Virus record (IMG/VR): IMGVR_UViG_3300012147_000006
Location: 78,156 to 142,155 of that record
DNA: 64,000 nt
Strand: one strand, 5' to 3'
DNA from: a virus
Shown: positions 18,723 to 33,149 of the stretch, piece by piece
Position numbering within the stretch: position 1 is the first letter of the stretch
Layout: every line of letters begins with the position of its first letter
Position numbers and translations under genes: made by a program
The notes under the pieces: generated by a model
The model's database searches: none
Told to the model about the DNA's origin: nothing
The model's input: the letters and a program-made list of their open reading frames with translations, nothing else

Positions 18723-19292
18723 ATGAAAAACATAATCATTTTTGGACCTCCTGGAACTGGGAAAGGAACAATGTCAGAGAAAGTTGCAAAAGAGTTTGGA
18801 TTTAAACATATTTCTACTGGCGACATAATTAGAAAGAACCAGGAAGAGAAGACAAAGATTGGAATTCTTGCTGACAAAGTTGTAAATCAAGGAAATTTGC
18901 TTCCAGATAATATTGTCAATGAAATGATTAAGCAAGAGATTATTGACAACAGCAATGCTTCTGGGCTCATATTTGACGGTTACCCAAGAACAACAGACCA
19001 AGCAAAAACTCTGGACCAATTTTTAAACAAAAGAAAGGCTCCAGTTTCAAAAGTTATTCTGCTTGATGCTGACAAGTATGTTATTAAAAACAGAATTTTA
19101 GAAAGAGGAAGAGAAAGCGGAAGAAAAGATGATAACGCTGAAGTTTTCGAAACAAGATGGAGCGCCTATCAAAAGGAGACAATTCCAGCTTTAAATTATT
19201 TTGAAGGTCGTGGAATGGTTGTGAAAGTTGATAGCGAAAAATCTATTGAATCGGTTTATGATGAGGTTAAAAGTATAATTAACGCATTATGA
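18723..19292 (+). CDS. adk: adenylate kinase (short LID)
   Basis: GPPGTGKGT, HISTGD, FDGYPR, GRKDD. Confidence 0.95.
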   Translation: MKNIIIFGPPGTGKGTMSEKVAKEFGFKHISTGDIIRKNQEEKTKIGILADKVVNQGNLLPDNIVNEMIKQEIIDNSNASGLIFDGYPRTTDQAKTLDQFLNKRKAPVSKVILLDADKYVIKNRILERGRESGRKDDNAEVFETRWSAYQKETIPALNYFEGRGMVVKVDSEKSIESVYDEVKSIINAL

Positions 19293-20857: not shown

Positions 20858-21844
20858 CTACACTTTTTCTGACTTTGTTCTCATGTCAATGAAGTTGTCT
20901 GTTTCGTCAACAATTTCATAACCAAATATTTCTTCATGTATATCTTCAAGAGTAATGATTCCAAGTATATTGTCATGTTCATCAACAACAATTAACAAGT
21001 GCTGTCTTGCGGTTCTAAAAATCTCCAATATGTCATCCAACTTCGTATCATCCTTTACAGTAATTGGCTCATTTGCTTTGTTCATTATTTTAGTACCCTT
21101 TCTCATTCCGAGAAGATTCTTGGCAAGGACGACTCCAACAACTTGGTCCCTCTTTGTTTTGAAGACGGGCACTCTTGTGTGACCCTTCTGAATTATGCTA
21201 TCAATTAATTCTGTGGTAAGCTTTTGGTCTTCATAGAATCTATACACATTTTTCTTTGGTGTCATTACCTCTCTTGCTGTCTTATCAGAGAACGTTAGAG
21301 CTCCCATAACAGTTTTTGCTTCCCTTTCATCAATATCAGTAGTAATGTCCAGCTGGTGGTCTCTAATCATCTCGCCAATTTCAAACTTTGTATGTCGAAC
21401 TGGAGGCTCAGGCCCAAGAAAATAATCCATAATTTTAGAAAGCGGCCAACATATAACCCAAAGAGCAATCATAAACACTCTAAATACAGGAGCTGCTTTT
21501 GAACCTATTTCAAGAGGATACCTTGAGCATATTGCTTGTGGTAATATTTCACCAAACACAACAACTAATGCTGTTGCAACAATCACAGCCATTGCACCAG
21601 TAAACATCTCACTCATGTATATTGCAAGTATGTTGTTAACTAATACGTTACCTATAAGAATCGTACAAAGAAGAAGGTTTCCATTCTTTCTAAGTCTATA
21701 AACAACATCAGCTCTCTTGTCGCCCATGCTTATTTTTCTTTGCAACTCTTCTTTCCCAAGGGACATAAACCCAAGGTTAAGTCCAGAAAATAATCCAGAC
21801 ATAAATAATAATCCTAAAATAATCCCTATACTAATTAGCTCCAT
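20858..21844 (-). CDS. CNNM/CorB-type DUF21 plus CBS-pair membrane protein
   Basis: SGLFSGL, LLCTILIGN, FGEILPQA, MTP, HTRVPV, GIITLED..EEI. Confidence 0.9.
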   Translation of the reverse strand: MELISIGIILGLLFMSGLFSGLNLGFMSLGKEELQRKISMGDKRADVVYRLRKNGNLLLCTILIGNVLVNNILAIYMSEMFTGAMAVIVATALVVVFGEILPQAICSRYPLEIGSKAAPVFRVFMIALWVICWPLSKIMDYFLGPEPPVRHTKFEIGEMIRDHQLDITTDIDEREAKTVMGALTFSDKTAREVMTPKKNVYRFYEDQKLTTELIDSIIQKGHTRVPVFKTKRDQVVGVVLAKNLLGMRKGTKIMNKANEPITVKDDTKLDDILEIFRTARQHLLIVVDEHDNILGIITLEDIHEEIFGYEIVDETDNFIDMRTKSEKV

Positions 21845-22988
21845 CTTCTTTTACGTGGTATTGAACTTTATAACATTCGTTGAGGTCTGGGACATCCAGG
21901 GCACCAATCATACTATTAACTGCGTCCTCTGGGACCTTGTAGTATCTGTTATGATTTTGATTTAATAAAACTTTATATGGAACCTCTATGTAGATAACTT
22001 CTACCTTGGCTCCGTAATCTTCAAATTCTTTAATAGCCTTTCCACGCATATCTTTTGTGATATTTGTTGCGTTGAATACAAAATCTTGCTTAACTCTCAT
22101 GTGAACTTTACACATTTCCTTGATGTCTTGATAGATGTGGCCTTCTGCTTTGGTGTCTCCACGCTTAACTTTTCTTTCTCTTCTCAGCGCATCAATTGAT
22201 ACCATTGGAAGGTCGGGTATGTTGTTTTTAATAAAAGTGTCTTTACCAGAACCTGAAACAGCGCACATAATGTAGGCTATTAAATCTTTTTCATCAAAAG
22301 GCTCATAGTCAGGGTGTGCTTCTTCTTTTTGGAAGTAGTATCTTCTACCGAGGTCGGATGCGAACTCTCTTGCGTTTCCAAAGCATTTATTATCCTTGCA
22401 AAGCTCTTCAAACAATTCTACACGCATTAGCATTTCTTCTGAATCTTTTGCAATCCTACCAAGTATATCAGCTTTTGCAAATAGTCCAAGCATTTTCGTA
22501 TTAAGAAACAAACTTGCGCCAATAACCTCTTTATCTGGATTCTCTTTTTCTATAGCCCAAATTGGCAATCCGTGGTGACGAACAAGCTTACAAATATGTT
22601 CTCTAATTATAAATGGAGTTGATATGTCTTTGTATAAAATTACCCTGGCAGTCTTCTCTCCTCTCTTGGCATGACTTCTTGAGGTGATTGCCATTCTCTT
22701 GACTCCATTCTCTTCAATTTCCTCTTCTTCTGTTGTGGAACGTTTTTCTATGTCATGAAACATTGCGGTTGCAAACAATATATGTTGCCCCTGTTCGTCA
22801 AAACACTTAAAATCTGGATGTGCAACAAGTGCCTCCGCCACCATTTTGGTGTGAACGAATACATCGCCTTCAGCGTGCCAGATTTTATCTTGAGGTACTC
22901 CCTTCATATCTCGGAACCAATCGAATTCTTTTTCGAGTTTGTCCCAAGGTATAGGAAGCCCTACTTCATAGTAAGGGAATTTCCACAT
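21831..22988 (-). CDS. HD-domain phosphohydrolase fused to AAA_33/polynucleotide-kinase-like P-loop
   Basis: WHAEGDV..HT, HDIEK, ADILGR; CAVSGSGKDT, NATN. Confidence 0.85.
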   Translation of the reverse strand: MWKFPYYEVGLPIPWDKLEKEFDWFRDMKGVPQDKIWHAEGDVFVHTKMVAEALVAHPDFKCFDEQGQHILFATAMFHDIEKRSTTEEEEIEENGVKRMAITSRSHAKRGEKTARVILYKDISTPFIIREHICKLVRHHGLPIWAIEKENPDKEVIGASLFLNTKMLGLFAKADILGRIAKDSEEMLMRVELFEELCKDNKCFGNAREFASDLGRRYYFQKEEAHPDYEPFDEKDLIAYIMCAVSGSGKDTFIKNNIPDLPMVSIDALRRERKVKRGDTKAEGHIYQDIKEMCKVHMRVKQDFVFNATNITKDMRGKAIKEFEDYGAKVEVIYIEVPYKVLLNQNHNRYYKVPEDAVNSMIGALDVPDLNECYKVQYHVKEDGAN

Positions 22989-23020
22989 AATTGTTTATAC
23001 GTAAATTTAATTGAAATGTT

Positions 23021-23221
23021 CTACTTATTTTTGCTATCTTTCTTGTAGGGGCAATGCTTGCAATTATTGTTGCAGCAAAAGTTTCTATCTCTAAGGTATG
23101 ATTCGGTAAATACTTTATAAGTAATGTCACCAGATTTTTCCCAATAGAAATCTACACCCTCTTCTAATATAAGCTTCTTACTCATTTGCAATAAATATGT
23201 AGATATAGTTACCCTCTTCAA
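23021..23221 (-). CDS. DUF5522-like Cys-rich protein
   Basis: YL..R..CC...CKHCPY; start probably MSKK. Confidence 0.7.
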   Translation of the reverse strand: MKRVTISTYLLQMSKKLILEEGVDFYWEKSGDITYKVFTESYLRDRNFCCNNNCKHCPYKKDSKNK

Positions 23222-23358
23222 GGGTGGATGTGCTTACCCAGGCTGGCGAATCTTGCTCAACTGCGTATGTTGTGTGTTTTGTCTTCATTATTAGTAAAAA
23301 TATATACTTTATATTTCAATATCAATAGTTTTTGTCTATTTATAATAAAGTGATTTTT

Positions 23359-23610
23359 ATGAAAAAGGAAATAATGGATATTATAAAGGAGGAGTTTGAG
23401 AGTGTTTTCTCAAAAACATTTTCTGGTGAAGAGATTTCTAATGCAATTAATAACAAGTACTTTATACACACCAAGGGTGGGAACGTCTTTTCTCCCGTAA
23501 AGCTAAACAAAGACTTTGTTGTTGGAGTAAACAATGACTGTCAACATGTTAACGTACCATTGGGTGAAATCACATTAATAGAAACCGCAGAAGAAAGATT
23601 TAGAAAATGA
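23359..23610 (+). CDS. putative virion protein
   Basis: TATTTAT then MKKEIMDIIKEEF. Confidence 0.6.
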   Translation: MKKEIMDIIKEEFESVFSKTFSGEEISNAINNKYFIHTKGGNVFSPVKLNKDFVVGVNNDCQHVNVPLGEITLIETAEERFRK

Positions 23611-23726
23611 TGGAAGTTGAAAACTTTTTAGTCTTTTGGTCGAATTTTTGCGTCTTAACAGTAGGGTTTAGTTTTTAGTGAGTCTATTTATATTAGACCA
23701 GCAAAAACGGCTAATATAAAATAGAA

Positions 23727-24011
23727 ATGTCACAAGTAGATAAGAAAATAGAATTCATTAAAATTTGGTATACATCAGAGTGTGCTAAGCTTAGCTTTGG
23801 AGATAGTCTTAAGCTTGCCAGAATATGGATTGAAGTTTGTCTTAAAGATGAGGAGTATGAGATGGCAGCTGCAATAACAGAGGAAAGACAGAAAATAATA
23901 AAGAAACACATCAAAAATAAGAGAAGCAAAAGACGTTTGTCTCAAAAGATTGTGATTTGGATATATCTTTGCAAAAGGAAGATGTCTGCCAAGCTTAAAA
24001 ATAGACGATAA
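23727..24011 (+). CDS. UVR-motif-like small protein
   Basis: EEYEMAAAI. Confidence 0.55.
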   Translation: MSQVDKKIEFIKIWYTSECAKLSFGDSLKLARIWIEVCLKDEEYEMAAAITEERQKIIKKHIKNKRSKRRLSQKIVIWIYLCKRKMSAKLKNRR

Positions 24012-24329
24012 AAGTATTTTTTTTAACCCGTTAGCTTTACCAATAGAATCCCGTGTACCCTTTGACTTCGAATACCAAAAAGCTACTACTAATTCTGAAT
24101 TTTCTATTATTGTTGTATTTCTTAGGAATCCAGCTTTTTTACCAAACAGGTCCCACTGGGCAAGGTAAATTTCGGTTGGCAAACCTTTTTCTTTGGCATA
24201 TCTCTCAGATAATTTGTCGGCACCCCTTGTTCCTCCAGATACTATTTTAGTGATATAAAATTGTTCTAAAGTTTTCTTAAGAAGCTCATAATCATTAAAC
24301 TCCCTACCTCCTATTACTGCTACTTTCAT
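23995..24329 (-). CDS. SLOG/YspA (DUF2493)-like protein; C-terminus frameshifted at an 8-nt homopolymer
   Basis: VIGGREF.DY, VSGG..GAD, AGFLRN, VAFW..SKGT; alternative frame ends NTFIVYF*. Confidence 0.8.
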
Positions 24330-24332
24330 ATT

Positions 24333-24542
24333 TTAATATTTAAAAATCTCTGGAAGAAGGTTTTTTACCATATCTCTAAAACCATCATTACTACCAATTT
24401 CTTTTATAAGTAAAAATTTAAACTCTTCCCTATATTTTTCATTTTTAATGATATTTTCTTTGGTTACATTTTTAAAACCATTTGCCATTAAATTACGAAC
24501 ACCGTTATCTATCAAATGTTCTCTAATTTGTTTATTTTCCAT
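24333..24542 (-). CDS. hypothetical protein
   Basis: ORF. Confidence 0.6.
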   Translation of the reverse strand: MENKQIREHLIDNGVRNLMANGFKNVTKENIIKNEKYREEFKFLLIKEIGSNDGFRDMVKNLLPEIFKY

Positions 24543-24634
24543 TATTTTCTAAATTTAGAAGTGTTAAAAAATATGCCAACTTGGTATTCGTCAATAAAAA
24601 ACATTTTTAACACTATTTATATAAAAATAAAGTT

Positions 24635-25555
24635 ATGGCTAATAAGTTTAATACACAAATATTTATAAATAAATCAACAAAAATTCATGGTGAATATTAT
24701 GACTACTCCTTGGTTGAGTATAAAAATTGTGATTCTAAAGTTAAAATAATATGCCCAAAGCATGGTAAGTTTGAGCAAATTCCTTACTTACATTATAAAA
24801 AAGGTAGTGGATGTATTAAATGTGCTGAAGAAAAAGTTGGAATGTCGTTTAGAAAGAGTGGTAAAGATTTTATCTCAGAAGCCAATAAAATACATAATTA
24901 TTTTTATGATTATTCTTTTGTAAAATATGATGGTGCTCGAAAAAACATAACAATAACCTGCTTAAAACATGGAGAATTTGACCAGACTCCAACTAATCAC
25001 TTAAAAGGAAAAGGTTGTAGGAAATGTTATAATGAAAAAATAAGAGACAGACTATTGATGACAACAGAAGAATTTACGTCAAGAGCTAAAATAATTCATG
25101 ATTATAAATTTGACTACTCATTGGTTAGCTATAACGGTGGTAGAAATAAAGTAAAAATAATATGCCCTATACACGGAGAGTTTGAACAGACTCCAGAAAA
25201 TCACCTTAGTAATCGTGGGTGCAGGAAATGTAGAAGTTCTAAAGGGGAAAAAGAAATAAGAAAAATTCTAAAAGAAAATGAGATTAATTTCAAAGAACAA
25301 CACACATTTGAATTGTGTAGGCATATAAACAAACTTCCTTTTGATTTCTATTTACCTGAACGTAATTTATGTATTGAATTTGATGGTAGACAGCATTTTG
25401 AGGTAATTGAATTTTATGGAGGACAAAAAGGCTTTGATTCTACAAAAATAAATGACCAAATCAAAAATGATTATTGCAAAAATAATGGAGTCACACTAAT
25501 TAGAATTAAGTATGACTCCATTATAAAAAAAGAGTTAAATAAAATTATTTCCTAA
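24635..25555 (+). mobile_element. free-standing homing endonuclease: 3x C.(K/I)HG.F zinc repeats (DUF723-like) plus Vsr/DUF559-like nuclease
   Basis: CPKHG/CLKHG/CPIHG repeats; SKGE, FDFYLP, IEFDG.QH. Confidence 0.8.
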
Positions 25556-26399
25556 AAACATCTGTATTAAATGTTGGAATAGGTATCATCTTGTGAAGAT
25601 TAGCTCTATGTCTTTTTAGATATATTTTCATTACTTCTTTTTCTCTTTCACTACAATCTTCATATATATGAACACCAAGATTTATGTCATTTGATGCTGT
25701 ACCTGTATAATAATTCATAGCCCACTCTAATTCTGAGTATGTACATCCCAATTGTTCTTCGTCTGTACGAGCGTCATCATGAAGTCCATCTGTAGGAGCA
25801 GCAACCAGGATGTCGTTGTTAATTCCAAGCTCAGAACCTAACTTATAAACTTCTGACTTCATAAGGTCAGCGATAGGAGATAAATCAACCCCACCATCAC
25901 CATACTTAGTATAGAATCCGATTCCGAAATCCTCAACTTTGTTTCCAGTTCCAGCGACAAGCATTTTGTTCATTCCTGCATATTGATAAAGAGTTGTCAT
26001 CCTAAGTCTTGAACGTGTGTTCGCCATTGAGAAATCAAAGTCTTCAGCAGAAATCATTCCTACAACTCCTTTTGATTTATTAGCATATGTGTTATAAAGA
26101 ACGCCATAAGCCTCTGTAAGGTCAATCTCTTTTGAAGTTACATTGTCGAAGTTATCCTTAAGCCATTGAATGTGGTTCTTGGCTCTATCAACTTCTGCAG
26201 TCCCCTGGTGAATTGGCATTTCAAGAACCAAAAGGTTCATTCCAGTTCTTGCGCATAATGTAGACACTACTGCAGAATCAATTCCTCCAGATACTCCCAT
26301 TACAAATCCGTTTGTTCCAGATTTTCTAACGTAGTCAGTTAACCAGTCAGAAATCCCTTCTGCGATGGCGCTATAGTTAAGTGTTGTAGTTGTTTCCAT
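25545..26399 (-). CDS. nadE: NH3-dependent NAD+ synthetase
   Basis: SGGIDSAV, N..SRLRM, GTGNKVE, FYTKYGDG, PTDGL, TDEEQLG. Confidence 0.95.
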   Translation of the reverse strand: METTTTLNYSAIAEGISDWLTDYVRKSGTNGFVMGVSGGIDSAVVSTLCARTGMNLLVLEMPIHQGTAEVDRAKNHIQWLKDNFDNVTSKEIDLTEAYGVLYNTYANKSKGVVGMISAEDFDFSMANTRSRLRMTTLYQYAGMNKMLVAGTGNKVEDFGIGFYTKYGDGGVDLSPIADLMKSEVYKLGSELGINNDILVAAPTDGLHDDARTDEEQLGCTYSELEWAMNYYTGTASNDINLGVHIYEDCSEREKEVMKIYLKRHRANLHKMIPIPTFNTDVFRK

Positions 26400-26404
26400 T
26401 TTAT

Positions 26405-27031
26405 TTATTTTTGAAATAATTTGTGTTCTTCAATGTGTTCAATTACCGCATCTGGAACGAAGTATCTATTTGAAATATTTAATTGGATGTTCTTTCTAAT
26501 TAAAGTGGCAGAAATGTCAATCTGAGGAACATCTTTAAGGTATGTTGATACTGAGTGAGCTTTGTCTGTCAACTTCCACTTAGAATCCTTCTCAGACACT
26601 TCTCGTGGATATACAATCATATCATGCATGTCAAGAATTTCTTCACGTTTTCTCCAGTAGTTACCCATTTTTCTCTGAGTATCTGTTCCAACCACGATTG
26701 TAAAATGAGTCTCTGGGTGTGCGTTTCGAAGTGCGCTTAGCGTTTCTGCAGTGTAAGATGGAACTGGCATGCTAAATTCAATATCACATGTAGAAAACTT
26801 AGGCTCATCAGCAATTGCCTTAGAAACCATCTCTAATCTATGGTTGGCATCTTCGAGTTCTCCGCTTTTTACCTTAGCAGGGTTTTGGGGGGACACAACA
26901 AACCATAATTCATCAAGGTCTGTGTGCTCAAGAGCTGCCTTAGCAACAATGAGGTGGCCAATATGAATAGGGTTGAATGAACCGAAGTATAATCCAACTT
27001 TTTTATTTAGAAGTTTAGTCTTCATTTTCAT
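26405..27031 (-). CDS. nadD: nicotinate-nucleotide adenylyltransferase
   Basis: FGSFNPIHIGH, SPQNP, PSYT, ISATLIR. Confidence 0.95.
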   Translation of the reverse strand: MKMKTKLLNKKVGLYFGSFNPIHIGHLIVAKAALEHTDLDELWFVVSPQNPAKVKSGELEDANHRLEMVSKAIADEPKFSTCDIEFSMPVPSYTAETLSALRNAHPETHFTIVVGTDTQRKMGNYWRKREEILDMHDMIVYPREVSEKDSKWKLTDKAHSVSTYLKDVPQIDISATLIRKNIQLNISNRYFVPDAVIEHIEEHKLFQK

Positions 27032-27692
27032 CTTCGTTTATAACTTGTTCAGCAATTTTCTTTGCACGCTCCATTCTTTGATTCTCAATAAACTGTCTTC
27101 CTGCAGCAACTACTTCAGAATTTCTAAAATGCCAAAGCGCTTGTGCTCCAATTAGTGTTTTTCCATCACAAATAGTTCCATCAGCAACCATATCAAAGAA
27201 CTTGCTAACACCATGTGATTCTATCTCAATATTTTCATGCTCCCCTTCTACTCCTCCGCCATTTGAAGCTTTGTCTTCATTGGTAACAAAAGCTAAGTAC
27301 AAGTAAATTTTTTCTGAAGAGTACCCTGGAGAAGCAAAGAAAGAGTTTAGCAAGCCCATCTTTCCTTCTTGTACTTCGTACCCAATTTCTTCTTTTATCT
27401 CTCTTAAGGCAGCGTCTGATGGAGATTCTCCTTCATCAACTTTTCCAGCTGGAATTTCAAGGATATTACCATCAACTTTGTCATCAATTGGATAACGGTG
27501 TTGCTTAACAAGAATTACAGTATCATCACTGTTGTTGTAGACAACAATAGCTACAGCGTCTGGTCTTGTAAGTTTGAATCTGTCGTAAGTTTGAACTTCT
27601 CCGTCTTCAGCAGTCTCTTCAACAATGCCTTTATCAATTTTAAAGTACTTATCATACTCTCTTTGTTCTGTTATTACTTTAATTTTTGGCAT
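27015..27692 (-). CDS. nudF: ADP-ribose pyrophosphatase (Nudix)
   Basis: QHRYP, EIPAG, Nudix box ALREIKEEIG, SPG.S.E, E.E.I, DGKT. Confidence 0.85.
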   Translation of the reverse strand: MPKIKVITEQREYDKYFKIDKGIVEETAEDGEVQTYDRFKLTRPDAVAIVVYNNSDDTVILVKQHRYPIDDKVDGNILEIPAGKVDEGESPSDAALREIKEEIGYEVQEGKMGLLNSFFASPGYSSEKIYLYLAFVTNEDKASNGGGVEGEHENIEIESHGVSKFFDMVADGTICDGKTLIGAQALWHFRNSEVVAAGRQFIENQRMERAKKIAEQVINEDENED

Positions 27693-28107
27693 CGTTTATT
27701 TTTTTAATTAGGTTTTCAATTTTAGCTTTTGCTCCAACCCCAAGAGGTCTCTTGTCTCCGTCTTGCTTGTCAATCCTTACAAAAACTGCTCGTGTTTTGC
27801 AAACCAACTTTTCCATTCCAGTGTGAACATTATATTTTCTCGCTTCAAGCGCAATTACTATTGATGTGGTTCCAACACTTATTGGTTCTCCATAAATATT
27901 AACTTGCGTATTTTCTCTCACTTTTTTGAGGAATTTTACTCCCTCCATTTCTCCAGTTACCATACTGCTTGATTCACACAAGCTTGTGGCCCAAATTGCC
28001 CCAGCCTTGTCTAAAAAACTCATCATTTTCCCACCAAAAAGATTACCATGAATTCCAAGGTCACCTTTCAATACTAATTCTCTTGTAATAAGCTCCATAT
28101 TAATCAA
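27679..28107 (-). CDS. hotdog-fold acyl-CoA thioesterase (YciA-like)
   Basis: HGNLFGG..M..LD, VGTTS, FV.ID. Confidence 0.85.
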   Translation of the reverse strand: MINMELITRELVLKGDLGIHGNLFGGKMMSFLDKAGAIWATSLCESSSMVTGEMEGVKFLKKVRENTQVNIYGEPISVGTTSIVIALEARKYNVHTGMEKLVCKTRAVFVRIDKQDGDKRPLGVGAKAKIENLIKKINDAKN

Positions 28108-28397
28108 ACTCTTATTTTAACTCCAGTGCAAATTCTATTTTCATCCAAAACTACTCCTATAGTTTTTATTGGTCTGTTATTTGAAAACTTTAACAAATCT
28201 ATTTCTATACTTTTTGTCATCATTCACCTTAAGTTCATTAAGCAAATAATTAATAGTGTCATCAACGCCTTTTAAATACGCTTGATTTACGTTTGACCAC
28301 AATGTTTCATCAGACATGTTGTCTGGAGAATTTGGTTTTATGTTATCAGAATAGTCAACTGATTTTTCTTTAAATTTTCTCTAATATTTTTCATATT

Positions 28398-29108
28398 TTA
28401 TATAAATTTCCAAACATAACCGCATGCTGTTTTTCTTTTTCCTTTACAAACTTCTCTTATGTGGTCGTTTTCGTATTTTTTTATAGCAATACTTAAGTTT
28501 TCAAACTCTTCTTGCAATTCGTTTTTATCAAACCTTCCAACCCTTAGTGTTTGATATGCGTTTTTAACTTTTATTTTCTTTTCAAAGTTACAACTTTCTT
28601 TCCAAATAAAAAAATAACCACGAGAAAATTTAGGTTTATTTTTTGGCACAGCACCCAATCGTCCTTTGATACTTTCTTCTGCTTTTTTTTTAGATTCGAA
28701 CTCTTTTAAAAAATCACCTTTTAAATCATATTGAAGGATTGGTTTATATAGTTTTTTTACAACTTCTTTTGGCCTCTTTCTGCCAGTTAAAGATTTTCTT
28801 ATCTTATCTTTAGTTTCCTCGCTTGTTGTATGTCCAAAAACTGCGCCACCAACTCCTCCATCTTGTAGGTTATAAAAATCTTCTGATTTAACAGCATCAA
28901 AAAAATCTATCCACCACACCTCTCTATTTTCAAGATGGCATCTATCTGTGCATTCTTCTAAAGTTATTTTTTTAAAATTTTCTTTGCCATATTTTTTTAT
29001 AGCTTTAGTCAGCACTGTTCCAGAACCCAAGTAGCTTTTTTTGTTTTTTACATCTTTACCTATATAACGCTTTTTGTTAATAAGGTTAATTGTCATATAA
29101 ACTACCAT
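28398..29108 (-). mobile_element. GIY-YIG homing endonuclease (NUMOD3/NUMOD1)
   Basis: VY..N..YIG, YLGSG, KYGKENF, YNL..GG. Confidence 0.9.
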
Positions 29109-29178
29109 AGTATTGTTTTACTATAAATAGTTTATAAAAACACTTTTACACCAAATCCATTAAATCATAATTCCTCCA

Positions 29179-30444
29179 TCAATTTTCCGATACTTCTGCA
29201 ACCTTTTCTACTTCTTTAATTCTTAAAGTGTCCTTACACAGTTGGATTTCTTCTTTGGTGCCAGTGTGTTTAATTGGATTATCACTAAGCTTAACTGTGT
29301 CAAACCATATGTCTCCAACTTTTACTTGAACAATCTTGATGACCATGTTGAGAGCTTTAACTCCAACGTCATTTGTAAAATGGGTCCCAATTCCAAAAGA
29401 ACTTTTGATTGCCGCAACAGGAGAACCATAAGCTATCGCTGTCTTTATACCAAGGTCTTTACAAAACTTGTATAAGTCAACAGCAATGTCTGTATTAAGA
29501 CCGTCAGAGAATACAATAGTTTTAGAAGATGAGTCAATCTCAAGTTTTCTATAATGAGCTACAACTTTAGTTGCAAACTCAAAAGGGTCGCCAGAGTCAT
29601 GACGAACTCCATCAAATAATTTAGCGAATTTTTTATCGAATGTTTTGAAAAATACATCTGTAGTAAATGTATCAGAAAGTGCAATACCAAGGTCTCCTTC
29701 ATAAACTTTAACCCAGTTCTCAAGAGCTCTGTAGTTTGCCATTGTGTATCCGTAATGTACAGCATGGAACATGAACCATTCATGAGCGTGAGTGCCTATC
29801 GGTTGAATGCCTGTCTTCATTGCAATATGCACATTAGATGTACCTACAAGGAATGGGTTTCCATTATCGAAACAAGAAAGCAAGTCCTCAACTACTTCCA
29901 ATTGGTTGTCATAAGAATATCTTCTACGAGTTCCAAAGTCAGCAACCTTCATTCCGTGAGTGTAGAATTTCTTACCCTTTTCAATATTGTTTGTGTGCCT
30001 CTCGCTTCTGCTCTTAATTTTTTCTCCAGTCATCTGGAAGTAAAGTTCAGATATAAGCGCCATAAGAGGAACTTCCCAAAGGATAGTTCTGTACCAGTAA
30101 CCAGTAATGTTGATTGTAAGGTCGCCACCGTCTTGCGTGATTCCTATTTCAGAAGAGTCATATCTATATGATTTCAAAAAATCAATATATGTAGGCTTTA
30201 AAAAGCTACCGCATTTTTGTGTAAGAAAATCAGCTTCAGAGTCTTTTAAAGATAGTTGTTCCATCTTTTTAAGTTCTTGTCTAAGCCTAAGGTCAAATCC
30301 ATCTGGGAACTTTGTTCCGCCTCTGTTGATGAAATTGTACTTAACCCATTCTCTTTGAAAAAGCTCCACAACAGCTTGTTGTTGGGTAAACTTATATAAA
30401 TCATTATCTATTATAGACTTAATTATACTTGACTTTTCGTTCAT
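29179..30444 (-). CDS. pncB: nicotinate phosphoribosyltransferase
   Basis: D.DLYKFT, DFGTRRR, GTSNV, GTHAHEW, DTF, RHDSGDP, KLSD. Confidence 0.95.
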   Translation of the reverse strand: MNEKSSIIKSIIDNDLYKFTQQQAVVELFQREWVKYNFINRGGTKFPDGFDLRLRQELKKMEQLSLKDSEADFLTQKCGSFLKPTYIDFLKSYRYDSSEIGITQDGGDLTINITGYWYRTILWEVPLMALISELYFQMTGEKIKSRSERHTNNIEKGKKFYTHGMKVADFGTRRRYSYDNQLEVVEDLLSCFDNGNPFLVGTSNVHIAMKTGIQPIGTHAHEWFMFHAVHYGYTMANYRALENWVKVYEGDLGIALSDTFTTDVFFKTFDKKFAKLFDGVRHDSGDPFEFATKVVAHYRKLEIDSSSKTIVFSDGLNTDIAVDLYKFCKDLGIKTAIAYGSPVAAIKSSFGIGTHFTNDVGVKALNMVIKIVQVKVGDIWFDTVKLSDNPIKHTGTKEEIQLCKDTLRIKEVEKVAEVSEN

Positions 30445-30496
30445 AACATTATAGTTTTATATAATATTATACGAACAAATTTACAAAATGTTTCAA

Positions 30497-31186
30497 TTAA
30501 TCCAATCTTTTTGCAGTCCACCCTTTGTGATGTTTTCTCTCCCCTTTAATTATCTTTAGTATATTAGCTCCGCTTAGATTATTTTTTTCGCAAAACAAAG
30601 TCAAACCATTTTCTGTAATGTAAATGTTTCCATCTGGGTCAGTCATCTCAAATTTCTTGATGTTTATTTTTCCTTTTGATGTTTTACTGCGCTTGTCTTT
30701 TGTTGCCTGAGTTGTTTTTCTTTTTTTTCTGGCAATACTTAAGTTTTCCTTATGCTCATCAGTAAACTTCATACCAATTCTGGCTTCACTCATTTTCTTT
30801 TTAGTTTCTTCACTGCGCTTACTTCCGAGGTGTGCTTTTCTTATTTTTTCAGATACCCCAGGAATAGACATTATCCCACCGTCTCCACCATCTGTTAGGT
30901 TTTTTAGATTATACCCTTCTTCTCTGAGTTTTTTAATGTAATAGATTTCTTTATCATCAACTTGGTCACACGATAAACCACTCTCAACAACCACAACAAG
31001 GTTATTGAAATTACTTCCTTCTCTGATAAGTTTTCTTAGTTTGTTGTATTTTGGGAGAGTATTCCCTTCTTTGACTTCAAATAGATGTTCTCTATTTCTT
31101 CTTTTGATGTCACAGGTCTTACCTATGTAAAAATATTGACCCTGGTCATCTATAAATGCGTAGATAGTGTGTTTTATTTCCTCCAT
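30497..31186 (-). mobile_element. GIY-YIG homing endonuclease
   Basis: IY..YIGKT..R..EH, NLTDGGDG, NUMOD3 repeats. Confidence 0.85.
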
Positions 31187-31431
31187 GATTTATGAGTTTT
31201 CTCATAAATAGGAATAAATTTATAAAAGTCGTTGTCATAATTTATTTAAGTTGTTATCCAACTAATTATTATCCTTGTTTTCTAATCTAAAAGGTCACGC
31301 CAATGTAGGCCTTTGTCAAAGTTTGCTCTAGTTACACTCTTTCTATTTCCAATAGAAATAGCAACTATGTATATGATAACTAATAAAGGCAAAATAAAAA
31401 CTGGTAATATAGTATAAAAAAAGCTCATAAT

Positions 31432-31665
31432 TTAATAATCTTTTGACATTCTCTCCAAAGTCTTTGCGCTCTCTTCGTGGTGCAAGTCTTTAAAGTGCGT
31501 TCCAACTTGTTCTTTATGTTCGTTTATAATAGGAACTGGCACATGCACATCCATATTATAAAGAAGTTGATGAAATCTAAGGCTTGGATATTTTTCTATT
31601 GCCTTAGATAATTCTTCAATTATTTTTCTATTAGCCTCTTGTCTTGCGTTATTTTGTTTGTTCAT
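31432..31665 (-). CDS. hypothetical protein
   Basis: YPSLRFHQLL; E2 promoter. Confidence 0.65.
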   Translation of the reverse strand: MNKQNNARQEANRKIIEELSKAIEKYPSLRFHQLLYNMDVHVPVPIINEHKEQVGTHFKDLHHEESAKTLERMSKDY

Positions 31666-31736
31666 AATATTTTTATTTAAAACATTTTTACCTATTCTAC
31701 GTATAATAAAGAAAAATGTTTCAACTATTTAATTAA

Positions 31737-33149
31737 ATGAGCAAAGAAATTAGAAATAAAATAGCAAATATACTTAACGAGGAATTTGGAGAATCTCAAA
31801 AAGACAAGCTCGTTGGGATGTTAAACGCACTTGAATTTAAGAATGACGTTCTTGCAGCAGGAGGAGAAATTTACGCTGTAGGAGGAATTGTGCGTGATGC
31901 AATTATGGGAACGCCAAGTGATGACCTTGACATTGTTGTTCGTGGTGTAGCTTACGACCAGTTATTTGCGATACTTTCTAAATATGGAAAACCGACTGAC
32001 ACGTCTCACGTAGATGAGAATGGTAAGAAGGATTTTGGTTCTACAAAGTTCGTTTCATCAAATAAAGCCTTTAATCAATTTCTTGCAGACAATGGTGCTG
32101 CCAGAGATATTGATGTGATGCTTCCTCGTAAGGACGCAAAGGACGTTGGAGTAAAGGGTCACAAAGGAATTAAATCTGAAGTAAACCCAATGTTTACAAT
32201 TCAAGATGACCTTGAGAGACGTGACATAACAATAAACGCAATCGCCATGGATATGGCTGGCAATCTAATTGTAAATGGAACTGGGGTTGAGGACATTCAA
32301 AATGGTGTCATAAAAGCGGTTAATGCAGATGCGTTTATTGAAGACCCGCTTAGAATGCTTAGAGCTGTAAGGTTTGCTGCAAGATACAATTACAATTGGG
32401 ACCCAGAAACTGTTAGACTAATTAAAGAAAACGCCTCACTTCTTGCTGACAAAGAAGAGTTGCACAGCAGTAGATTCTTAAAAGAGTTTCAGAAGATGAT
32501 TGGTAAAGCTGATTTATCAAGAGCTGTTCGATTGATTGTTGAACTGGGTATGTACAAGCATATTTTTGGCGTAGAGTCAAAGATTCAAGATTACACTAAA
32601 TTTCAATACGCAAATAGCGTTGGGGAGATGGCATACATGATGTTTGACAACGAAGCTTCAGGAACAATTTTAGGACTGGTTAACAACAATATAACAGATG
32701 ACAAATACACCGCTGCCGTTGTAGAGTCTCTAATTAACTACGTTGGCAATGTGAAAAACAAAAACCTTGACTTCATCAAGAGAGTTAATGAGCTTGCTTC
32801 TATCTTTCTTAAAAAAATGGATACAGTTGCGAGAACAGGTCCAGGCGTAGACGTTTTAACAAACTCTTACTACATAGAACCTCATGATAGAGAGATTGCA
32901 AGAAAGTTTTCTACTGGAGAACTTCCAGCTGGAGAAAATGACGTTGCCTTTAAGGGTCAAGAGTTTGCTGAATTTGTAAGAGACATTATAGTAAGCAACC
33001 AGGGTGAGTTTAGTAAATCAAAAGATGGCAGAAAGTTTGGTAACGCAAAAAGACTTGCGCTAACAGCTCTTTACAATGAAGAGATTGAAAACGATGTTGA
33101 TAGTATTAAAAGATTCTTGATTGATTCCGCAAATCAATGGATGCTATAA
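31737..33149 (+). CDS. cca: CCA-adding/poly(A)-polymerase-family nucleotidyltransferase
   Basis: VGGIVRD, DLDI, DL.RRDITINA, EDPLRMLRAVRF. Confidence 0.85.
   Translation: MSKEIRNKIANILNEEFGESQKDKLVGMLNALEFKNDVLAAGGEIYAVGGIVRDAIMGTPSDDLDIVVRGVAYDQLFAILSKYGKPTDTSHVDENGKKDFGSTKFVSSNKAFNQFLADNGAARDIDVMLPRKDAKDVGVKGHKGIKSEVNPMFTIQDDLERRDITINAIAMDMAGNLIVNGTGVEDIQNGVIKAVNADAFIEDPLRMLRAVRFAARYNYNWDPETVRLIKENASLLADKEELHSSRFLKEFQKMIGKADLSRAVRLIVELGMYKHIFGVESKIQDYTKFQYANSVGEMAYMMFDNEASGTILGLVNNNITDDKYTAAVVESLINYVGNVKNKNLDFIKRVNELASIFLKKMDTVARTGPGVDVLTNSYYIEPHDREIARKFSTGELPAGENDVAFKGQEFAEFVRDIIVSNQGEFSKSKDGRKFGNAKRLALTALYNEEIENDVDSIKRFLIDSANQWML

Follow-up and report, generated by a model that had tools for sequence, protein, structure and literature searches.

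The window analysed here is the last 64 kb (64,000 nucleotides) of the linear, 142,155-bp IMG/VR virus record IMGVR_UViG_3300012147_000006 (positions 78,156 to 142,155), and it carries on its minus strand a compact unit of five genes, pncB, a thioesterase gene, a Nudix hydrolase gene, nadD and nadE, which very likely forms a functional module for making nicotinamide adenine dinucleotide (NAD+) from nicotinate. The three enzymes of the Preiss-Handler route are all present and look functional, and the interpretation that best fits the predicted proteins, which we advance with moderate confidence, is that the operon supplies NAD+ in a general manner by this deamidated route. An earlier interpretation drawn from the nucleotides alone (hereafter the sequence-only reading) had recognised the same five co-oriented genes, a SLOG gene downstream of them and an adk gene further away, and all of these are confirmed by hidden Markov models. 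The record has a CheckV completeness of ~65%, and the ~35% of the phage genome that lies outside it bounds every genome-wide absence reported below.

The nicotinate phosphoribosyltransferase PncB (29179-30444, minus strand, 421 amino acids) scores 441 bits against NF003704 (cut-off 379) and 392 bits against TIGR01514 (cut-off 270), its best match in the PDB is 2im5 (E 6e-94), and the GTHAHEW motif, with its phosphorylatable histidine, is aligned and kept; pncB is the sole PF04095 gene in the 142-kb genome. NadD (26405-27031, minus strand, 208 amino acids), a nicotinate-mononucleotide adenylyltransferase, reaches 160 bits on TIGR00482 (cut-off 112), contains the motifs GxFxPxHxGH and ISATLIR and finds its best PDB matches in bacterial nicotinate mononucleotide (NaMN) adenylyltransferases; its scores on the NadM and NadR models are far under their cut-offs. 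The NAD+ synthetase NadE (25545-26399, minus strand, 284 amino acids) reaches 167 bits on TIGR00552 (cut-off 64), carries the SGGIDS motif and matches NH3-dependent NAD synthetases in the PDB. It consists of a single domain, which is the ammonia-using form (PMC3376133), and it can therefore be assigned to the ammonia type. All three proteins combine the family models with the catalytic motifs of Preiss-Handler enzymes. Among isolated phages, the closest NadE relatives come from T4-like cyanophages and a pelagiphage, where they are annotated as NAD synthetases (47-50% identity), and a nucleotide search against isolated phages gave a sole match, of 90 nucleotides of nadE, to cyanophages.

The Nudix hydrolase (27015-27692, minus strand) belongs to the YffH/AdpP (ADP-sugar) family, with 104 bits on TIGR00052 (cut-off 80) and a complete Nudix box, and among solved structures it is closest to ADP-ribose pyrophosphatases and NudK. 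From this resemblance it is a probable ADP-ribose pyrophosphatase; box and family both agree with the NudF/AdpP subfamily, in a family that also holds the GDP-mannose enzyme NudK. The hotdog-fold 4HBT thioesterase (27679-28107, minus strand; PF03061, E 6e-13) is YciA-like, its PDB matches are acyl-CoA thioesterases, and it has no evident place in the NAD scheme. Overlaps of 14-17 nucleotides join the reading frames of the thioesterase, Nudix and nadD, and nadE begins 5 nucleotides after nadD, an arrangement that suggests co-translation as one translationally coupled unit.

The order pncB-(4HBT)-Nudix-nadD-nadE-(small open reading frame, ORF)-SLOG is kept in relatives at 50-79% PncB identity. 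The 199.7-kb contig L030 (76% PncB identity) reads pncB-4HBT-Nudix-nadD-nadE-ORF71-SLOG (111 amino acids) with no endonuclease gene, and the thioesterase is kept in L006, L014 and L030 and absent from L032. The window holds, in addition, three endonuclease-type genes. The first, of GIY-YIG/NUMOD homing-endonuclease type, lies between pncB and the thioesterase (28398-29108, minus strand; TIGR01453, E 6e-14, just under the cut-off, with weak GIY-YIG and NUMOD1 Pfam matches); it is present in L006 and missing at this place in L014 and L030. The second GIY-YIG gene (30497-31186, minus strand; PF01541, E 4e-8), upstream of pncB, occurs in L014 and L020 and is absent from L006 and L030. The third is an ORF of 306 amino acids on the opposite strand (24635-25555, plus strand), lying between nadE and a 69-residue ORF, whose Pfam matches are DUF723, zinc-ribbon and DUF2726-like; it is probably a free-standing endonuclease insertion and is missing between nadE and SLOG in L006 and L030. 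Inside the operon of L014 neither endonuclease-type insertion is found. Because their presence varies in this manner among L006, L014 and L030, the three genes can be regarded as mobile insertions around a conserved core.

Downstream of nadE, the 69-residue ORF (24333-24542, minus strand) occupies a variable slot: it has no family match and no similarity to the 71-residue ORF at the same place in L030. The SLOG gene that follows (23775-24329, minus strand, 184 amino acids; YAcAr/YspA-like, PF10686, E 2e-12) keeps its position in L006 and L030 and is also downstream in L151, and only its residues 1-96 are conserved, with 66% identity to the 111-residue orthologue of L030. Its tail (23775-24041, minus strand) consists of ~80 hydrophobic, unconserved residues past the end of that orthologue, and in this region another gene caller chose an ORF of 94 amino acids on the opposite strand (L029); the tail may be a genuine membrane segment or result from the loss of a stop codon. 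On a larger scale, viral contigs share a synteny made up of thyA, a deoxynucleoside monophosphate kinase-like gene, a CCA-adding enzyme, pncB to nadE, SLOG, an HD-plus-kinase Pnkp-like gene and adk. Two of these genes flank the NAD operon in the window, namely a gene of the CCA-adding-enzyme/poly(A)-polymerase family (31737-33149, plus strand) and a Pnkp-like gene with a weak HDIG match and a P-loop kinase (21831-22988, minus strand). In L032 the CCA enzyme carries an additional cREC domain and a nucleotidyltransferase/2',5'-RNA-ligase (2H) gene lies nearby, and together these genes look like an RNA-repair set placed beside the NAD genes.

The operon is preceded by the bipartite motif TGAAAC-N16-CGTATAA (30467-30495, minus strand), a putative phage promoter that lies 22 nucleotides upstream of the pncB start and directly downstream of the second GIY-YIG gene. 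An alignment of upstream regions places the motif at the same position in three relatives (L006, L014 and L020), and the 142-kb genome holds 4 copies where 0.07 are expected, all of them 10-50 nucleotides upstream of a start codon and in the same orientation. Being conserved, over-represented and situated upstream of starts, it is a real signal, and its position suggests a promoter that may act early in infection. The 'E2 promoter' of the sequence-only reading stands in this sense as a conserved motif; it does not stand as a repeated exact sequence or a generic promoter, since the exact 21-mer upstream of pncB has a single copy in the window and a generic sigma-70 promoter/terminator scan of 23000-32000 was not enriched over shuffles.

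The DNA is phage DNA. PHROG families are matched in the record, which also encodes an endolysin, many endonucleases of the HNH and GIY-YIG types and a polymerase of phage type. Two independent samples yielded the identical locus, and an identical PncB also lies on a 257-kb contig. The host of this large uncultured phage is probably a member of the Bacteroidota, in which the nearest cellular PncBs are found (50-58% identity). This affinity, together with one 67%-identical PncB in a clearly bacterial context, could be taken to mean that the operon was captured recently from a host and plays no role in the phage, or that cellular DNA was misfiled as viral. Both ideas are largely refuted and we consider them scarcely credible: the intact operon is conserved across phages down to 50% PncB identity, viral PncBs form groups of their own, the surroundings are phage-like, the cluster recurs in viral contigs and the same locus was recovered twice. 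The separation of viral and cellular proteins is visible in a FastTree phylogeny built from 80 PncBs of viruses and 80 from genomes; as a quick tree in which some branches are long, it shows clustering and not the direction of transfer. In it, 72 Bacteroidota genome PncBs form one supported group with the viral PncBs outside, which argues for long residence in phages, and the viral/genome label changes 4 times as against 53.6 times when shuffled. The exceptions are one Myxococcota group and short contigs of metagenome-assembled genomes (MAGs) that resemble mis-binned phage. Three GTDB MAG contigs (L033, L039 and L084, from Deltaproteobacteria and two 'uncultured bacterium' MAGs) have PncBs that group with the phage clade of the window (74% identity for L033); the contigs probably belong to phages and were mis-binned.

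A survey of co-occurrence places the operon among its relatives. PncB homologues were found on 137 IMG/VR contigs and in 13 of 50,697 GenBank phage records, and gene neighbourhoods were counted at the best 81 IMG/VR loci, the window itself excluded, by searching iteratively the ORFs up to 10 kb to either side of pncB; some of these loci are near-duplicates, and the counts refer to contigs and not to lineages. NadE lies near pncB at 54 of the 81 loci, a PncA-like protein of the isochorismatase family at 50, Nudix at 18, NadD at 15 and an NAD-dependent ligase at 4. Most of the 50 PncA-bearing loci have NadE within 10 kb, and the commonest set is PncA, PncB and NadE (27/81). The set found in the window, Nudix, NadD and NadE without PncA, occurs at 4 of the 81 loci, plus the window. 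The viral PncA-like proteins are genuine nicotinamidase relatives, with 157-178 bits on NF008623 (cut-off 174), and one of their genes (in L008) belongs to a genome of 405 kb that is complete and bears terminal repeats. Several loci have distinctive arrangements. At L017:5934-11839, and likewise in L018, L019, L021, L022 and L025, the order pncB-GroEL-nadE-Nudix-pncA-IMPDH/GMP-reductase occurs with all genes on one strand, immediately preceded by a peptide deformylase gene. A gene 2 kb past pncB in the downstream direction (L007:12390-13289) fuses a MazG-like pyrophosphohydrolase domain with a NadD-type adenylyltransferase, and at L015:1121-6636 pncB and nadE are separated only by the gene for an NAD-dependent DNA ligase, which ties NAD+ synthesis to a phage consumer. 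Supply of NAD+ to such a ligase was considered for the window as well and rejected: the ligase is near pncB in L015, L134, L137 and L161, and none was found in the 142 kb.

We propose that the operon would act as follows. PncB would convert nicotinate and phosphoribosyl pyrophosphate (PRPP) into NaMN, NadD would convert NaMN, whether from PncB or from the de novo route of the host, into nicotinate adenine dinucleotide (NaAD), and the ammonia-type NadE would amidate NaAD to NAD+. NadD and NadE form a common trunk with the host de novo route, so the operon could speed NAD+ formation from either input. The co-translated Nudix hydrolase would most likely split free ADP-ribose into adenosine monophosphate (AMP) and ribose-5-phosphate, clearing a reactive by-product, and SLOG may bind or cut nucleotides derived from ADP-ribose, as predicted for viral SLOG domains (Iyer et al. 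2022). Transcription would be driven by the promoter-like, phage-specific motif, amid neighbouring genes for RNA repair and nucleotide metabolism, and the net effect would be a greater capacity for NAD+ synthesis in the infected, probably Bacteroidota, cell. The phage could benefit whenever NAD+ is low, be it through host NADase defences or through its own demand. Since it contains no nicotinamidase, the module is not a closed nicotinamide-recycling loop by itself, and its nicotinate would come from the medium or from host PncA, or be replaced by NaMN made de novo.

Several observations weigh against general NAD+ supply by the deamidated route. Among solved structures NadE is closest to chain 3fiu, which we take to be the Francisella enzyme acting as a nicotinamide mononucleotide (NMN) synthetase, and for this reason the order of amidation and adenylylation is not fixed by sequence. 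NadE is nevertheless less likely to be a Francisella-type NMN synthetase, because its partner is NadD-type and not NadM-type. The family of the Nudix protein includes GDP-mannose- and NAD-cleaving enzymes. Searches of the 142 kb found no match to PncA/isochorismatase (PF00857), Prs (PF13793) or PnuC (PF04973), no NAD-dependent ligase and no Macro gene; the record reveals neither a nicotinate source nor a phage consumer of NAD+, with about 35% of the genome unseen. Furthermore, phage Preiss-Handler clusters are known in silico only.

The missing partners bear most directly on the proposal of the sequence-only reading, namely a dedicated counter-defence loop. NADases of the Thoeris, DSR and SIR2 types split NAD+ into nicotinamide and ADP-ribose; a nicotinamidase, either of the host or encoded in the third of the phage genome not seen here, would turn the released nicotinamide into nicotinate, PncB, NadD and NadE would rebuild NAD+, and the Nudix hydrolase would yield ribose-5-phosphate for PRPP and AMP to be recharged by Adk. 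An anti-defence role is a reasonable idea, and the genes for the claimed steps from nicotinate through NaMN and NaAD to NAD+ are intact; a closed loop, however, needs PncA and Prs from elsewhere. Both had been noted as absent from the window, and neither was found in the rest of the record. Neither PncA nor Prs was found in three fragmentary close relatives (G001-G003), and the syntenic relative L151/G071 (290,886 bp, 91% complete) has no isochorismatase-family gene, so that the nicotinamidase of a full salvage pathway was found nowhere in this set, which includes fragmentary and incomplete genomes. A PncA-like match (E<=1e-20) occurs in 17 of 61 sampled Bacteroidota genomes, 13 of the 17 being above the cut-off, and the step from nicotinamide to nicotinate appears, as far as seen, not to be supplied by the phage and to be missing from most potential hosts too. 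The route also costs PRPP and several ATP and requires free ammonia. In favour of the loop, PncA-type nicotinamidases adjoin PncB and NadE in other phages, and the isochorismatase-family ORF within 10 kb of pncB at most of the surveyed loci would make nicotinamide the usual entry point; several distinct PncB clades include loci with a Nudix gene close to pncB, and the SLOG and RNA-repair neighbours fit an early anti-immunity region (Iyer et al. 2022). On balance we regard the dedicated loop as possible though unlikely. The thioesterase was also considered as a stand-in for PncA and rejected, in view of the PncA-less L032, L150 and L151, which are likewise without thioesterase, and of its solved relatives, which are acyl-CoA thioesterases.

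The adenylate kinase gene invoked for AMP recycling is present (adk, 18723-19292, plus strand; PF00406, E 9e-45), but it lies outside the operon at a distance of 10.8 kb, on the opposite strand, and is paired with the adjacent folA among nucleotide-metabolism genes. It is found 3-8 kb from the cluster in L014, L030, L032 and L151, and can be called loosely syntenic. Nucleotide metabolism explains adk better, and its link to NAD recycling is a conjecture.

The Nudix and SLOG genes raise another question, whether the main task is rather the removal of ADP-ribose-derived molecules. The Nudix hydrolase, perhaps with SLOG and the thioesterase, would then destroy immune signals of the ADP-ribose or cyclic ADP-ribose type, and the NAD+ genes would be accessory. 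Viral Nudix and SLOG domains are predicted to act against signals and toxins derived from ADP-ribose (Iyer et al. 2022), SLOG is kept downstream in L006, L030 and L151, and a protein with a DrHyd-like domain is encoded elsewhere in the genome. Conversely, the three NAD+ enzymes fill most of the operon and are its best conserved part, the Nudix protein resembles plain ADP-ribose pyrophosphatases, and most viral pncB loci have, within 10 kb, no Nudix (62 of 81) and no SLOG (77 of 81). This explanation is improbable in our estimation, and general NAD+ supply is preferred to it. The DrHyd-like domain belongs to a protein of 334 amino acids encoded outside the window (genome C1:60-1064), in which a calcineurin-like phosphoesterase is joined to a nucleoside 2-deoxyribosyltransferase-like (DrHyd-class) domain, of a class linked to the processing of NAD+ and ADP-ribose derivatives. 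Within the window, a CNNM transmembrane and CBS-domain protein, a divalent-cation transporter of CorC/HlyC type (20858-21844, minus strand), is encoded by the phage; it is found in the identical loci L028 and L029 and absent from L030.

A more far-reaching idea is that the PncA-less arrangement pncB-4HBT-Nudix-nadD-nadE-SLOG constitutes a distinct anti-NADase system of Bacteroidota phages, which would need only the operon and ordinary host enzymes, and which would clear ADP-ribose or signalling molecules derived from it and rebuild NAD+ along the deamidated route. Nicotinate might then be drawn from a host source or be formed by an unrecognised nicotinamide-deamidating activity, for which the thioesterase and the small ORFs may be candidates. 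We hold this to be doubtful; if true, it would amount to a fourth NAD+ reconstitution pathway.

Bacteria commonly defend themselves by depleting NAD+, and its restoration by phages is proven for three pathways, namely NARP1, NARP2 and, as published in Sci Adv 2026 (PMC13464706), NARP3. NARP1 consists of Adps, a Prs-like ADP-ribose-pyrophosphate synthetase, and the NAMPT-like Namat; NARP2 consists of Nampt and a bifunctional Nmnat/Nudix protein (Osterman et al. 2024; KVP40 NadV/NatV type); and NARP3 is formed by PnuC and NadR. The NAD genes covered by Iyer et al. 2022 are NadV, NadM and NadR only. At the level of in silico description, 174 jumbo phages with complete salvage or Preiss-Handler pathways have been reported, with a pncB-nadD-nadE cluster named in Kuafu_71, whose Kuafu clade infects Bacteroidota (Li et al. 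2024, Microbiome, PMC11662467), and a 2026 phage paper suggests that pncB, nadD and nadE possibly counter NAD+ depletion. Our literature search turned up no NARP4 and no experimentally tested Preiss-Handler counter-defence. The deamidated route can nonetheless be described as widespread in uncultured phages, considering the 137 IMG/VR contigs found here and the 174 'NAD-jumbo' phages of the literature.

The operon shares with NARP1 and NARP3 the goal of restoring NAD+ in infected cells, and its chemistry is entirely different. The 142 kb contain no PF13793 match that could represent a Prs-like Adps, no second gene of the nicotinate phosphoribosyltransferase (NAPRTase) family that could represent Namat, and no PF04973 match that could represent PnuC, and the NadR models stay far under their cut-offs. 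NARP2 is closer, being likewise a phage salvage route to NAD+ with a phosphoribosyltransferase of the same superfamily, a subsequent adenylyltransferase and an associated ADP-ribose-type Nudix domain; it differs in taking nicotinamide directly, passing through amidated intermediates and needing no NadE. In the window, by contrast, the one gene of the NAPRTase family scores above the PncB equivalog cut-offs and not as a NAMPT, the adenylyltransferase is NadD-type, NadE is required and Nudix is a separate gene. The claim that the operon is distinct from NARP1 and NARP2 is upheld by these differences, and the suggestion of a 'third' pathway has been overtaken, given that NARP3 already combines PnuC and NadR and that phage pncB-nadD-nadE clusters were described in 2024 (PMC11662467).

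The nearest counterparts are the NAD-jumbo clusters of Li et al., such as those of Kuafu_71 and Kuafu_19, where a large phage genome groups the genes for these three enzymes and the predicted hosts are Bacteroidota, and for which phage-driven NAD+ synthesis, possibly with a counter-defence purpose, was proposed, again from sequence. The phage described here agrees with their definition of pncB-nadD-nadE on a genome above 200 kb, as indicated by 142 kb at ~65% completeness and by the identical PncB on the 257-kb contig. The locus is an ordinary further case of that cluster and adds no new principle. It differs in that its conserved unit includes a Nudix hydrolase, a hotdog thioesterase and SLOG, in the homing endonucleases that interrupt it and in the lack of any PncA found, and interest attaches to this PncA-less, Nudix/SLOG-coupled layout, to the polymorphism of the endonuclease genes and to the promoter-like motif with its conservation in relatives. 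The PncA-PncB-NadE clusters of other phages (e.g. L008, L017, L024) resemble it in their homologous PncB and NadE, encoded on the same strand in a viral context; they have their own nicotinamidase and usually no NadD or Nudix, and in the lineage of the window the reverse is the case. Phages with pncB accordingly fall into two kinds: some encode a nicotinamidase of their own, others lack it but have NadD and Nudix, and the two layouts predict that reliance on host PncA or on nicotinate from outside will differ.

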